From an uncultured virus (IMG/VR IMGVR_UViG_3300028833_000145) (taxonomy: Duplodnaviria; Heunggongvirae; Uroviricota; Caudoviricetes): a stretch of DNA of 20,000 nucleotides. Of the stretch, positions 1,837 through 16,509 are shown piece by piece. The notes under the pieces are model-generated. The model was not told the DNA's origin and searched no databases. It worked only from the letters and a program-made list of their open reading frames with translations. The stretch is taken from the IMG/VR virus record IMGVR_UViG_3300028833_000145. One strand, written 5' to 3'. A program made the translations under genes and the position numbers. Position 1 is the stretch's first letter, and each line of letters begins with the position of its first letter.

Positions 1837-2364
1837 ATGAGCAAGATTGATGAGATGATTCGTGAAAACAGGCAAGAGTATGGAATTGATCTGCCTGAAG
1901 ATGAAGCTCGAGAGCTTGCTAAGCTGCAGCTGGAAGACCTCAAGCGGAAGGGCTGCACACTTGAGAACATTAGTGAGTGCCATGGGTGCTCAGCTACTAA
2001 GGATGGTTCTGAGTGTCCTCTGTGTGATTGGGAGAAACGCCATCCTGAATATGCCAATGATGAGCTTGCCAAGAGAATCAAAGCCCTTGAGAACAAATCT
2101 AGAGACAAGTTCAAAGCTGAGATGAAGTCCAAGGTCATTGGAGAGTTCAAGAAACTCAAGGTAGATGTTGACTTGACCGAGGCAGCTAGAGCACTTGAAA
2201 CCGCGGCTAGAGACATGATAGAAGCTGCTAGAGAATTTGAGGAAGTTGAAGGCCAAAACGATGAAGTCCAGCTCAAAGCTCTGGCTAAAGTCAATGAAGC
2301 TCTTGACAAGATCCGCCACAGCAAGCTTGGATTCTTCTTAGAGAGGACAAAGTGGTTTGCTTGA
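1837..2364 (+). CDS. hypothetical protein with Cys cluster and coiled coil; N-terminal half paralogous to 18077..18583
   Basis: Promoter at 1773 and SD GAAAGGA. C-x6-CxxC-x8-CxxC followed by WEKRHPEY. Confidence 0.85.
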   Translation: MSKIDEMIRENRQEYGIDLPEDEARELAKLQLEDLKRKGCTLENISECHGCSATKDGSECPLCDWEKRHPEYANDELAKRIKALENKSRDKFKAEMKSKVIGEFKKLKVDVDLTEAARALETAARDMIEAAREFEEVEGQNDEVQLKALAKVNEALDKIRHSKLGFFLERTKWFA

Positions 2365-2427
2365 GATTGCCACAGCCTCAGCCTTTTGATATGATTCTGC
2401 TTGCTAACTGAAAGAAATGACAAAGCT

Positions 2428-2562
2428 ATGGATAGTGACAAAATCAAGACGGCTTTCGACTATGTAGTCTTCATCATTCTTGTAGTTGCTATAGCATCTA
2501 TAGTTCCAATTGGGACATGCATTGCAATTTGGATGGTGTTAAAAGCTGCAGAGAATTACTGA
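2428..2562 (+). CDS. small membrane protein (44 aa)
   Basis: MDSDKIKTAFDYVVFIILVVAIASIVPIGTCIAIWMVLKAAENY, downstream of promoter 2367. Below the ORF-track size cutoff. Confidence 0.6.
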   Translation: MDSDKIKTAFDYVVFIILVVAIASIVPIGTCIAIWMVLKAAENY

Positions 2563-2635
2563 TTGGATTTGGATGTTGCCACAGCCTCAAGCTTTTGATA
2601 TAATTCTGGATGTCAACCACTCAAGGAAATCACCA

Positions 2636-2839
2636 ATGCCAGAGACCTGTATCTACAAACTTGACTACCAGCATCACTCAAGCTTTTCATTTGCTTGGGA
2701 TGAAATGCATGCAACTGAGATAGTTGAAGCACCCAAGAACATTGGCTTCAGAGAGCTTGAGACTCTATGCCATCAGAAGATTCCTGGATTCTGGGCTTTG
2801 AACAATTTCGAGGAAGTCTATATTCGGAAGCTTGTGTGA
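2636..2839 (+). CDS. hypothetical protein
   Basis: Promoter at 2576, SD AAGGA, ATG 2636. Confidence 0.75.
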   Translation: MPETCIYKLDYQHHSSFSFAWDEMHATEIVEAPKNIGFRELETLCHQKIPGFWALNNFEEVYIRKLV

Positions 2840-2862
2840 CCAACAAAGAGGAGAAACATCGT

Positions 2863-2954
2863 TGGTTGGGGAGCTGGGATTCGAACCCAGACCGACGGCT
2901 TCAGAGGCCAAAGGGTTTTAGAGACCCTCGTGCTAACCACTACACTACTCCCCA
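2863..2954 (-). tRNA. Amber suppressor tRNA (anticodon CUA), Gln-type acceptor stem, 92 nt, with a second CUG anticodon-like arm in the variable region
   Basis: TGGGGAG-TA-GTGTAGTGGTTAGCAC-G-AGGGT CTCTAAA ACCCT-TTGGC CTCTGAA GCCGT-CGGT-CTGGG TTCGAAT CCCAG-CTCCCCA-A-CCA. Perfect 7-bp acceptor stem, canonical T arm, encoded CCA. Confidence 0.92.
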
Positions 2955-2966
2955 ATCAGAGATTCA

Positions 2967-2974
2967 TATTTATA
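2967..2974 (-). promoter_or_regulatory. T4-type late promoter TATAAATA upstream of the suppressor tRNA
   Basis: Exact match to the T4 gp55 late consensus, 12 nt upstream of the tRNA 5' end. Confidence 0.7.
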
Positions 2975-3037
2975 TTTTATTGGAAGTGCTTAGAATCTTA
3001 GTTGCCAAAGTTGCTTTGCTTTGATATAATTCTGAGC

Positions 3038-3319
3038 ATGGAAAGCAACAACACAACCACTAAGATGAAGATTGTCCTTGCAAAGAAGCCTAGCAGCACT
3101 GAGTTCTGTGTCTGTGACTATAGCACCTTGAAAGTGCTTGATGTCTTTGATCTCAGCAAGCTCACTCTTCCACAATGCGTCAACATGCTCAAAGACCACT
3201 ATGAGATTGCTGGATTCCTCAGCCATGGAATGATCATTCCTCTAGTTGGCCTCATTCCTAGCCATGAAGACAAGCGAATCGAAGATGTGCATGAGCGCTT
3301 AGCTAAAGTTGCAGCTTGA
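3038..3319 (+). CDS. hypothetical protein (probably leaderless)
   Basis: ATG 7 nt after the -10 (3025-3030), no SD. Confidence 0.7.
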   Translation: MESNNTTTKMKIVLAKKPSSTEFCVCDYSTLKVLDVFDLSKLTLPQCVNMLKDHYEIAGFLSHGMIIPLVGLIPSHEDKRIEDVHERLAKVAA

Positions 3320-3894: not shown

Positions 3895-4377
3895 ATGAGA
3901 AACTTCACTGCTAGCCAGACTCGTGAATATGAGAAGTCAAACTCACTTGACAGGATTCCTTGTCTAGAAGGTCTAGACACTGGCTGCAAGGCTGAGATCC
4001 TAGAAGGTGCTTCGGATGCAGTCTCTAGGACTAGAGTTGGCCAGAAGTTCATTGACTGTGTGTGCAAGAAGGCTGGAGTTCCTTCTGTCATGCTTTGGGT
4101 CAAAGATCAAAGCCAGCTTCATCGAGATGACAAAGCTCTTGGAACTCTGAAGCAGAAGACGCTTGGCCGCTATTGGCATGCTGGAAGCAATGGAAAGAAG
4201 ATTGAGATCTGGAATCTGACAGCCAAACGTGGGAAGGTTGTAGCAGCCAAGACATTCTGGAACACTCTCTGCCATGAGCTCTGCCATCACCTTGACTGTG
4301 CAAAGCTAGGACTGGCAAGTTCATTCCACTGTGCCGGATTCTACAAGCGAATCTCATTTCTTGAGTCCCTTGGATGA
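3895..4377 (+). CDS. putative zinc metalloprotease (zincin, SprT/YgjP-like)
   Basis: TLCHELCHH (HExxH) with a downstream H-x-x-x-F (FHCAGF). SD GAGGAG. Confidence 0.7.
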   Translation: MRNFTASQTREYEKSNSLDRIPCLEGLDTGCKAEILEGASDAVSRTRVGQKFIDCVCKKAGVPSVMLWVKDQSQLHRDDKALGTLKQKTLGRYWHAGSNGKKIEIWNLTAKRGKVVAAKTFWNTLCHELCHHLDCAKLGLASSFHCAGFYKRISFLESLG

Positions 4378-15162: not shown

Positions 15163-15480
15163 ATGGACATAAACCAACTTCGCATCCAGACAGCTAATGC
15201 TCGTGCCTCTAGAGAGGCTACTGAAGACAAAGAGTTCAATGACAGTCCACTTCGTGAATATATTGATGGCTTGATAGCTAAAGCTTCTAAGCGTGGAGAG
15301 TCTAAGATATCACCAAACTTCTATTGCCTGAAAGAGGATGTGCTTGGTGAGAAGTATGGTGGACCTTCTATTGACACTGCAATTAGGCACTACAACAGTG
15401 AGGGGTTTCATGCATACTCAAAAAGCTGGTGCTCGCCTAATGGCTATGGCAACACAAGCTTGATAATCTCTTGGGAGTAG
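15163..15480 (+). CDS. hypothetical protein
   Basis: Promoter at 15099, SD AAGGAG. Ends in TAG abutting the next -35. Confidence 0.8.
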   Translation: MDINQLRIQTANARASREATEDKEFNDSPLREYIDGLIAKASKRGESKISPNFYCLKEDVLGEKYGGPSIDTAIRHYNSEGFHAYSKSWCSPNGYGNTSLIISWE

Positions 15481-16424: not shown

Positions 16425-16509
16425 GTGGGTGTGCGCCGAATGGATAAGGCAGCGGCCTTCTAAGCCGCCGGGATTTCCCATGCTGGTTCGACTCCAGTCA
16501 CCCACGCCA
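16425..16509 (+). tRNA. tRNA-Arg(UCU) with a long variable arm, 85 nt
   Basis: GTGGGTG/CACCCAC acceptor, GCGGC-CTTCTAA-GCCGC anticodon arm, GCTGG-TTCGACT-CCAGT T arm, G73 and CCA. Variable region CGGGATTTCCCAT. Confidence 0.9.

Follow-up and report, generated by a model that had tools for sequence, protein, structure and literature searches.

GlnRS and TrpRS depend on the anticodon for the identity of their tRNAs, and the identity set of tRNA-Gln for E. coli GlnRS comprises a weak 1-72 pair, G2-C71, G3-C70, G10, G73, and a YUG anticodon with A37. E. coli amber suppressors charged by GlnRS are supE, a tRNA-Gln with CUA, and su+7, a tRNA-Trp with CUA. Class II tRNAs (Leu, Ser, Tyr) carry a base-paired arm between the anticodon and T arms along with a 3-bp D stem, and in the nematode nev-tRNAs it is the arm, not the anticodon, that sets the amino acid. 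tRNA-Pyl, for its part, is characterized by a compact body with a 3-nt variable loop, a small D loop, and a 6-bp anticodon stem. Allo-tRNAs have an 8/4 or 9/3 acceptor/T branch, as stated in the available portion of PMC5389517, and in the E. coli thrS operator an mRNA mimic of an anticodon arm binds the synthetase, according to the accessible part of PMC9976931.

Among phages, the available text of PMC10607447 describes phAss-1 (Phass-1) as a TAG-to-Gln "code 15" phage, in which TAG occupies conserved Gln sites in TerL and for which tRNAscan-SE calls Gln. Its long tRNA is annotated as a suppressor in that same text, where the extra arm goes unmentioned and the word "variable" has 0 occurrences. 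In the accessible part of the preprint by Borges et al., how phage suppressors become charged is named an open question. No arm that copies an anticodon is described for suppressor tRNAs in the available main texts of the literature, supplements aside, including PMC7590224, PMC12636597, PMC7886860, and 10.64898/2026.08.21.746148. A first-pass annotation of the locus presented here knew of no described tRNA of such architecture, and the accessible texts on phage suppressors likewise contain none.

The locus lies in a 20,000-nucleotide stretch (hereafter the window) of an uncultured virus, IMG/VR record IMGVR_UViG_3300028833_000145. Its minus strand carries a tRNA gene with the following features, listed from the 5' end of the RNA after the gene as a whole.

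2863..2954, minus strand: whole tRNA gene, 92 nt with the encoded CCA (ARAGORN; Rfam RF00005; family model R1)
2948..2954, minus strand: 5' strand of the acceptor stem, UGGGGAG, with its partner at 2867-2873; U1-A72, G2-C71, G3-C70
2930..2945, minus strand: D arm, a 4-bp stem and an 8-nt loop with GG, of class-I type (Rfam alignment)
2912..2928, minus strand: hairpin 1, the predicted decoding anticodon arm, AGGGU-CUCUAAA-ACCCU (ARAGORN and Infernal place the anticodon here)
2919..2921, minus strand: anticodon CUA, predicted to read UAG (ARAGORN; the plus-strand letters are TAG)
2895..2911, minus strand: hairpin 2, the putative spare Gln-anticodon arm, U-UGGC-CUCUGAA-GCCG-U (RNAalifold; covariation)
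2902..2904, minus strand: displayed CUG triplet (Gln anticodon) in the loop of hairpin 2 (family alignment columns)
2891..2894, minus strand: CGGU, the last 4 of 5 unpaired linker nucleotides (U2895 and CGGU), resembling a class-I variable loop
2874..2890, minus strand: T arm, CUGGG-UUCGAAU-CCCAG (Rfam alignment)
2866, minus strand: discriminator A
2863-2865, minus strand: encoded CCA

Read 5' to 3' on the minus strand, the gene runs from a 7-bp acceptor stem through a 4-bp D stem, G26, hairpin 1, hairpin 2, and a linker to the T arm, with a single U between hairpin 1 and the paired part of hairpin 2 and the linker UCGGU leading to the T stem. Both hairpins have 7-nt loops, whose sole difference is the third anticodon position (A in hairpin 1, G in hairpin 2), and deletion of either 17-nt unit on paper gives a 75-nt tRNA. 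These two tandem anticodon-like arms, with their 7-nt loops and the 75 nt left on removal of either, had been described in the first-pass annotation, with which ARAGORN and Rfam agree. Its reading of the gene as a tRNA of the amber-suppressor type that bears another anticodon-like arm also stands, the CUA being placed by ARAGORN and Infernal. ARAGORN called the tRNA with anticodon cta at position 34 under the label "Pyl", which derives from the CUA anticodon alone. The Rfam tRNA model (RF00005) matched the gene at 62.4 bits (E 1.2e-11, threshold 29) over all 71 model positions, and its alignment assigned the extra nucleotides to the variable region (21 nt). The 7-nt anticodon loop, CUCUAAA, frames CUA between U33 and A37. 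Set against the tRNA-Gln identity elements, the body has U1-A72, G2-C71, G3-C70, and G10 and lacks G73 (A73), while YUG-A is absent from the decoding arm, where CUA stands, and confined to hairpin 2. Another tRNA of the window, with a UCU anticodon, also has a long variable arm, as seen with both ARAGORN and Rfam.

We evaluated whether hairpin 2 folds and whether the gene is genuine. In the window, hairpin 2 comprises three Watson-Crick pairs and one U-G pair (4 bp), its outermost U-U being unpaired; the two 5-bp units initially proposed thus hold for hairpin 1 and not for hairpin 2. Comparison of alternative folds had been suggested in the first pass; ARAGORN calls a cloverleaf, and the single-sequence thermodynamic fold does not single out hairpin 2 (z-score -1.65), with a minimum-energy structure that pairs this region of the window sequence differently and a centroid that leaves it open. 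RNAalifold, applied to 46 sequences, predicted hairpin 2 unprompted, with 3 bp and a 7-nt loop. It is the comparison of relatives that establishes hairpin 2, a single-sequence fold being insufficient. Regarding the gene itself, run X4, an independent one that belongs to another study, yielded a contig that spans 2860-3044 with 2 letters different, none listed within the tRNA; with the whole gene present in that contig, the possibility of an assembly chimera raised in the first pass can be dismissed. In a third run (X3), a sequence related to 2881-2943 occurs in a different context. The exact 40-mer across both loops had 0 matches in viral_contigs and metagenome_contigs. In the single RNA run (X12), cover was found at 2575-2616 only, on a repeated promoter-like element, and is uninformative on expression of the tRNA. 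Neither an HDV-like ribozyme nor any other Rfam family was found beside the tRNA at E up to 1 in positions 2300-3300, in a database from which the theta family is possibly absent. The runs in which the window occurs carry the labels of sheep gut and bovine gut metagenomes.

Next, we searched viral contigs for tRNAs of the same kind. Two IMG/VR scans, in which only the CUCUAAA loop and the T loop were fixed and the variable region was unconstrained, returned at least 109 loci and 67 loci (the latter complete), and yielded at least 101 CUA tRNAs, at least 65 of them distinct. The 65 distinct CUA tRNAs listed divide into 45 class-I-bodied ones whose variable region measures at least 19 nt, 16 with a class-II body, and 4 short ones. 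All 45 class-I-bodied long CUA tRNAs among the matches listed have YUG in the 7-nt loop of the extra arm, and the triplet displayed by these 45 is always a Gln anticodon (CUG in 40, UUG in 5). Their loops are CUCUGAA (18), UUCUGAG (12), CUUUGAA (3), GGCUGAC (3), CCCUGAA (2), CUCUGAC (2), and UUCUGCA (2), with three others found once each. In the complete scan, 52 of the 67 loci have a member of this family, and the reverse arm order (YUG first, CUA second) was seen at 0 of 49 loci. The family is diverse, with a median pairwise identity of 64% and 19 clusters at 80% identity, and the window copy reaches no more than 78% identity with any other listed member. A family model (R1) scored the window gene at 97.4 bits, level with the third-best of 46 matches, a score that is by itself not independent since the window sequence was included in the building alignment. 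Metagenome-assembled genome bins with family members are labelled Bacillota, Mollicutes, Erysipelotrichaceae (twice), and Nanosyncoccus; these are probably binned phage contigs and offer a host hint only.

The members share further traits beyond the displayed triplet. The linker from hairpin 2 to the T stem measures 5–7 nt in 40 of the 45 listed (5 nt in the window), whereas the 16 CUA tRNAs with class-II bodies from these scans have 1–2 nt. The hairpin-2 stem, counted with a 7-nt loop, has 2–3 bp in 35 of the 45 listed, and the variants with loop UUCUGAG fold with CUG alone unpaired, a fold that resembles the splayed anticodon of the GlnRS complex. The bodies of the 45 listed are Gln-like, in that the 1-72 pair is never G-C (45/45), G10 occurs in 43 of 45, and position 73 has G in 35 members and A in 9. 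When bodies were compared, the same phage's own tRNA-Gln ranked first in similarity to the family tRNA in 2 of 5 phages and within the top 3 in 4 of 5, a weak signal that would point to Gln as the isotype. One scan also contained 29 CUA tRNAs of 72–78 nt without hairpin 2, and Phass-1 carries two short CUA tRNAs beside the long one; given such arm-less phage CUA tRNAs, hairpin 2 appears to be dispensable for suppression in general.

The letters of the second loop are strongly conserved across this family. In a structure-based alignment made with R1, U35' and G36' are found in 45 of 45 members each, 34' is C in 40 and U in 5, and A37' occurs in 43 of 45, with the complete set of loop columns reading C26/U15/G3, U37/G6/C2, C40/U5, U45, G45, A43/C2, and A26/G13/C6. 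Hairpin 2 keeps its three inner pairs in 44, 44, and 34 of the 45, with both-side changes in 10, 13, and 17; the covariation in relatives proposed as a check in the first pass, with a conserved loop on a changing stem, is therefore observed. An R1-made alignment leans toward the structure. A MAFFT alignment, which was not structure-fitted, agrees with these results; on it, the five-helix structure yielded 88.5% paired cells versus 61.8% for shuffled alignments, with 0 of 500 shuffles reaching the observed value, and slid controls gave 39–49%. The other helices of the family pair at 92.5% (acceptor), 97.8% (D), 95% (hairpin 1), and 100% (T). The invariant letters are those of a Gln anticodon (CUG or UUG) followed by A37, and the loop is under selection, its conservation not identifying the reader; shared descent of the members accounts for part of the invariance. 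The further suggestion that the arm was duplicated from a tRNA-Gln anticodon arm finds no backing here, as the two hairpins are alike only in the loop, both in the window and in its relatives.

A similar design was detected among UGA readers. Scanning for the loop CUUCAAA gave at least 27 distinct long-armed UCA tRNAs, and UCCA(A), the Trp anticodon loop, stands at the tip of the extra arm in 25 of the 27 among the matches listed; the two listed without UCCA look Sec-like. Arm-tip YUGA occurs in 46 of 61 CUA tRNAs and 1 of 27 UCA tRNAs among the matches listed, and arm-tip UCCA in 0 of these 61 CUA tRNAs and, in this tally, 24 of the 27 UCA tRNAs. The Trp design arose separately, with a matching triplet. 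Long variable arms were also found on 70 of 80 UUU tRNAs (62 distinct), and in this set YUGA, UCCA, or UUUU was found at the arm tip in 0 of the 62 distinct tRNAs. The extra arm as a suppressor-specific trait is ruled out by these common long arms on UUU tRNAs. Taken together, this suggests that the suppressor-specific feature is an arm copying the cognate sense anticodon, rather than the arm itself, and that the displayed triplet follows the amino acid, i.e., Gln for UAG readers and Trp for UGA readers.

We then examined the use of TAG in four relatives (G001–G004), which are IMG/VR phage records taken in full (140–169 kb, CheckV 88–100% complete). Each encodes 27–33 tRNAs, among which exactly one has a stop anticodon, the double-arm CUA tRNA. 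With TAG read as sense, ORFs of 3,300–4,300 codons open in these genomes, with up to 124 in-frame TAG per ORF, and such giant ORFs do not open in the four with TGA or TAA as sense. A scan of giant frames against PHROGs covered G001 and G003, two of the four genomes: three of the six giant frames scanned there are tail genes (tape measure, Dit, tail protein), one belongs to a family of unknown function, and two had no match. In pairwise comparisons over the four genomes, the residue opposite TAG is Gln in 98 of 606 cases, 5.0-fold over background, the next residue being at 1.6-fold. In G001–G004 the double-arm tRNA is thus the one decoder that the phage itself encodes for a TAG codon in heavy use. 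The GlnRS/GluRS catalytic domain (PF00749) was detected in 0 of 5 phage records including Phass-1, and the control matched 14 of 14 genomes; because no GlnRS or GluRS was found in the phage records, charging is most likely performed by host enzymes. All five phages (the four relatives and Phass-1) encode tRNA-Gln(UUG), and tRNA-Gln(CUG) is missing in three of the five.

The phage nature of the window is indicated by 8 of 32 ORFs matching PHROG families and by relatives of a 445-aa ORF on IMG/VR contigs. Its 20 kb read well in the standard code, with 31 ORFs ending in TGA (23), TAA (4), and TAG (4). When TAG was read as sense in the 20-kb window, plus-strand ORFs became hardly longer and no sign of in-frame TAG was seen. 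TGA as sense in the window, where 23 of 31 ORFs end in TGA, was rejected, as frames lengthen alike on both strands. Many short plus-strand genes lie behind repeated promoter-like sites in the window. A 62-kb metagenome contig with the 445-aa ORF at 100% identity starts near window position 4376, so that it does not include the tRNA. Two distant relatives, L002 (317 kb) and L003 (222 kb), showed no long-armed CUA tRNA by pattern.

Overall, these patterns suggest that hairpin 2 is probably an identity handle for glutamine charging by the host. Among the roles proposed for the arm in the first-pass annotation, synthetase recognition appears best supported, with a Gln anticodon in 45 of the 45 listed and a Trp anticodon on 25 of the 27 UGA suppressors listed. 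Hairpin 1, which has a 5-bp stem that is 95% paired, lies one nucleotide after the D stem, and is chosen by both tRNA finders, is the predicted decoder and would read UAG on the ribosome. Hairpin 2 sits at the variable-arm site, is built as an anticodon arm, and displays U33'-C34'-U35'-G36'-A37'; it would offer the host charging machinery (GlnRS, or a non-discriminating GluRS and GatCAB in hosts without GlnRS) the Gln anticodon that this machinery requires. Because a CUA or UCA decoder lacks part of the anticodon signal, a spare arm would restore it, and with such a handle a CUA-decoding tRNA could still be loaded efficiently and specifically with Gln. The synthetase may read hairpin 2 with the arm docked in place, or, while charging proceeds, with the arm stacked in the place of hairpin 1, and the 5–7-nt linker would let the arm swing or swap stacking with hairpin 1. 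As a tentative extension, which we regard as possible without expecting it, the tRNA may be a two-state adaptor in which hairpin 2 stacks for charging and hairpin 1 for decoding, within a five-way junction. The Gln anticodon of hairpin 2 would then dock in the anticodon pocket of the synthetase, the choice of amino acid would be uncoupled from the codon, and phages may, on this equally tentative view, have reached the solution at least twice (Gln/UAG and Trp/UGA).

Several points count against the identity-handle reading. Class I synthetases bind tRNA with the variable region toward solvent, and a short arm at this site does not bring its tip to the place of the anticodon. The window discriminator is A, not G, the hairpin-2 stem is as short as 2–3 bp in 35 of the 45 listed members, CUA suppressors without the arm exist, the likeness of the bodies to tRNA-Gln is moderate, and the 20 kb of the window itself give no sign of TAG recoding. 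Long arms without any mimic are also found on UUU tRNAs, and because these are common among phages an extra arm can have other uses.

These observations leave room for other explanations, most of which bear on the function of the second arm. Hairpin 2 may be read by another partner, such as a modification enzyme of the phage or the host, a processing factor, or a regulator timing suppression. The conservation of the loop indeed shows selection without naming the reader, and the available part of PMC10879173 reports theta ribozymes and CCA-adding or ligase genes accompanying many phage suppressors, so that such phages do possess factors devoted to tRNA handling. However, the triplet tracks the amino acid (Gln/UAG, Trp/UGA) as anticodon-dependent synthetases need, which would otherwise be a coincidence, and no Rfam ribozyme was found beside the window tRNA at E up to 1, so that we consider such a partner unlikely. 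It is somewhat harder still to see the arm as a structural or protective element, acting against anticodon nucleases or for stability, with an anticodon-like loop inherited from its origin and no role in charging. Mimic-less long arms are frequent on phage UUU tRNAs, and one is found on the UCU tRNA of the window, so phages evidently equip tRNAs with arms for other purposes; yet protection needs no particular loop, whereas positions 35', 36', and 37' are fixed while the stem changes on both sides over 19 clusters at 80% identity, and a separate Trp design bears its own matching triplet. This makes a purely protective arm quite unlikely.

The layout of the gene is symmetrical, with one nucleotide before hairpin 1 and a loop-like linker of 4–5 nt after hairpin 2, and could thus suit a two-way decoder of UAG and CAG/CAA, or a tRNA with hairpin 2 as its true anticodon arm and hairpin 1 as an insertion. 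Three of the five phages are without their own tRNA-Gln(CUG), and reading CAG with Gln would cost no fidelity. Such dual decoding is nonetheless very unlikely when the 2–3-bp hairpin 2 of 35 of the 45 listed is set against the conserved 5-bp hairpin 1, when both ARAGORN and Infernal choose hairpin 1, and when the reverse order is absent from all 49 loci and tRNA-Gln(UUG) present in 5 of 5 phages; the short stem and the missing reverse order likewise make the two-decoder idea of the first pass improbable. The first pass had also left charging with Leu, Ser, or Tyr open, and a class II identity, with SerRS, LeuRS, or TyrRS recruited through the arm and UAG read as Ser, Leu, or Tyr, would be in line with the 21-nt variable region, A73, and the 16 distinct class-II-bodied CUA tRNAs among the matches listed. 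Nevertheless, the D arm is of class I, with a 4-bp stem that is 97.8% paired in the family, the linker is 5–7 nt in 40 of the 45 listed against 1–2 nt in class-II-bodied tRNAs, and TAG lines up with Gln rather than with Ser, Leu, or Tyr in the four genomes that have a member of the family as their only suppressor; Gln is also reported in the available text of the phAss-1 paper. We therefore regard class II charging as highly improbable. Finally, an assembly artefact or a dead gene might be suspected from the 40-mer across both loops being absent from viral_contigs and metagenome_contigs and from the lack of RNA cover in X12, but an explanation of this sort is largely refuted: an independent contig runs through the gene with its flanks at 2 differing letters, neither of them listed within the tRNA, the five helices are intact, and the score of 97.4 bits against R1 is level with the best members.

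If hairpin 2 does serve as an identity handle, it would represent a natural separation of tRNA identity from decoding, with a bearing on genetic code change and on the design of efficient suppressors for GlnRS- and TrpRS-type enzymes. The question of how anticodon-reading host synthetases come to charge phage suppressors would find a concrete answer, open to mutational testing, in a spare hairpin with the cognate anticodon. If the two-state adaptor were also true, the design could be copied for anticodon-dependent synthetases. In terms of annotation, such tRNAs are now labelled "Pyl", "TERM", or "long variable arm".

With regard to known systems, the window tRNA belongs with the phage amber suppressors rather than with class II tRNAs, tRNA-Pyl, or allo-tRNAs. 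As in class II tRNAs, a long paired variable arm is present (21 nt, 4-bp hairpin), but the 3-bp D stem and the 1–2-nt linker are absent; relative to both class II tRNAs and nev-tRNAs, the window tRNA differs by its class-I body, the 7-nt anticodon-type loop of the arm, the linker (5–7 nt), and the imitation of an anticodon. tRNA-Pyl is ruled out by the 21-nt variable region, the 8-nt D loop with GG, the 5-bp anticodon stem, and the standard T loop, and allo-tRNA by the 7-bp acceptor stem and 5-bp T stem. Like the window tRNA, supE and su+7 are CUA tRNAs of the Gln system with a weak 1-72 pair and G10, but they have a single anticodon and 75–76 nt and bear the loss of G36, whereas the window tRNA adds a full YUG loop on a second arm. 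In thrS-type mimics, a hairpin with the cognate anticodon attracts an anticodon-reading synthetase, in mRNA leaders where it regulates translation according to the accessible text; unlike that of the thrS operator, the mimic of the window sits inside a tRNA. Suppressors of recoded phages (crAss-like, Lak, and others), as presented in the available parts of the Borges et al. preprint and Yutin et al. 2021, share the CUA anticodon and the phage-borne gene and are likewise presumed to carry Gln and to rely on host synthetases, but they are ordinary cloverleaves there, with no second arm mentioned, and many in our scan measure 72–78 nt. The only match among 50,697 GenBank phage records was Phass-1's tRNA-Sup-CTA (OQ749652.1, 62445-62532). 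It differs from the window tRNA in its acceptor stem, in G73, and in an identity of ~80% that extends over 71 nt only; the two share their architecture and the loop of hairpin 2, CUCUGAA, which in Phass-1 tops another stem (AUUCC/GGGGU).

Stop-codon use in the window is skewed, with TGA terminating 23 of 31 ORFs and TAA and TAG four each (4/31). When TAG is read as sense, the ORF at 15163-15480 extends to 15555 and ends five bases short of the next ORF. This skew and the possible TAG readthrough of the ORF are suggestive only.

Two promoter-like sites flank the double-arm CUA tRNA (2863-2954, - strand) and lie on the strand opposite to it:

2576-2604, + strand, promoter-like site: TTGCCA and TATAAT separated by 17 nt, TG upstream of TATAAT; near-consensus, 11/12 matches
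3002-3030, + strand, promoter-like site: TTGCCA and TATAAT separated by 17 nt, TG upstream of TATAAT; near-consensus, 11/12 matches

Since many separate contigs matched window positions 2575-2617 in all four of the sequencing runs compared, including the RNA run, this segment is a repeated element.

The window also encodes a second tRNA, detected by both ARAGORN and Rfam:

16425-16509, + strand, tRNA with anticodon UCU (Arg by anticodon)

This tRNA has a class-II-like body, with a D arm of the Ser/Leu type, discriminator G, and a base-paired variable arm of 13 nt, the loop of which does not copy an anticodon. Class-II-like bodies carrying class-I anticodons were also seen in phage tRNAs with anticodon UUU, which served as a comparison set of long-armed tRNAs lacking a stop anticodon (viral loci L518 onward). 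Among the matches listed, a long variable arm together with a class-II-like D arm was common (70 of 80), and at least 62 long-armed tRNAs were distinct, with an anticodon-like arm tip found in none of these 62.

Unusual tRNAs were encountered at other viral loci as well. At L512, a 93-nt tRNA with a GCU (Ser) anticodon arm carries CUCUAAA inside its variable-arm loop, a single case of the reverse kind of combination to that of the double-arm CUA tRNA. The CUA tRNAs of L016, L034, and L043 have class-II bodies and a short variable arm (CC-UGAC-GG), so that CUGA appears again at the arm tip, here in a 4-nt loop. Within one phage record encoding a double-arm CUA tRNA (G001), the Rfam tRNA model matches three stretches of 115-126 nt at 44794-45452, which may represent tRNAs with large insertions. 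Finally, at L033, L070, and L079, a short CUA tRNA (73-75 nt) directly adjoins a long double-arm one, an arrangement resembling that of the published TAG-to-Gln phage Phass-1 (OQ749652.1), in which a short CUA tRNA likewise lies beside the long double-arm CUA tRNA.
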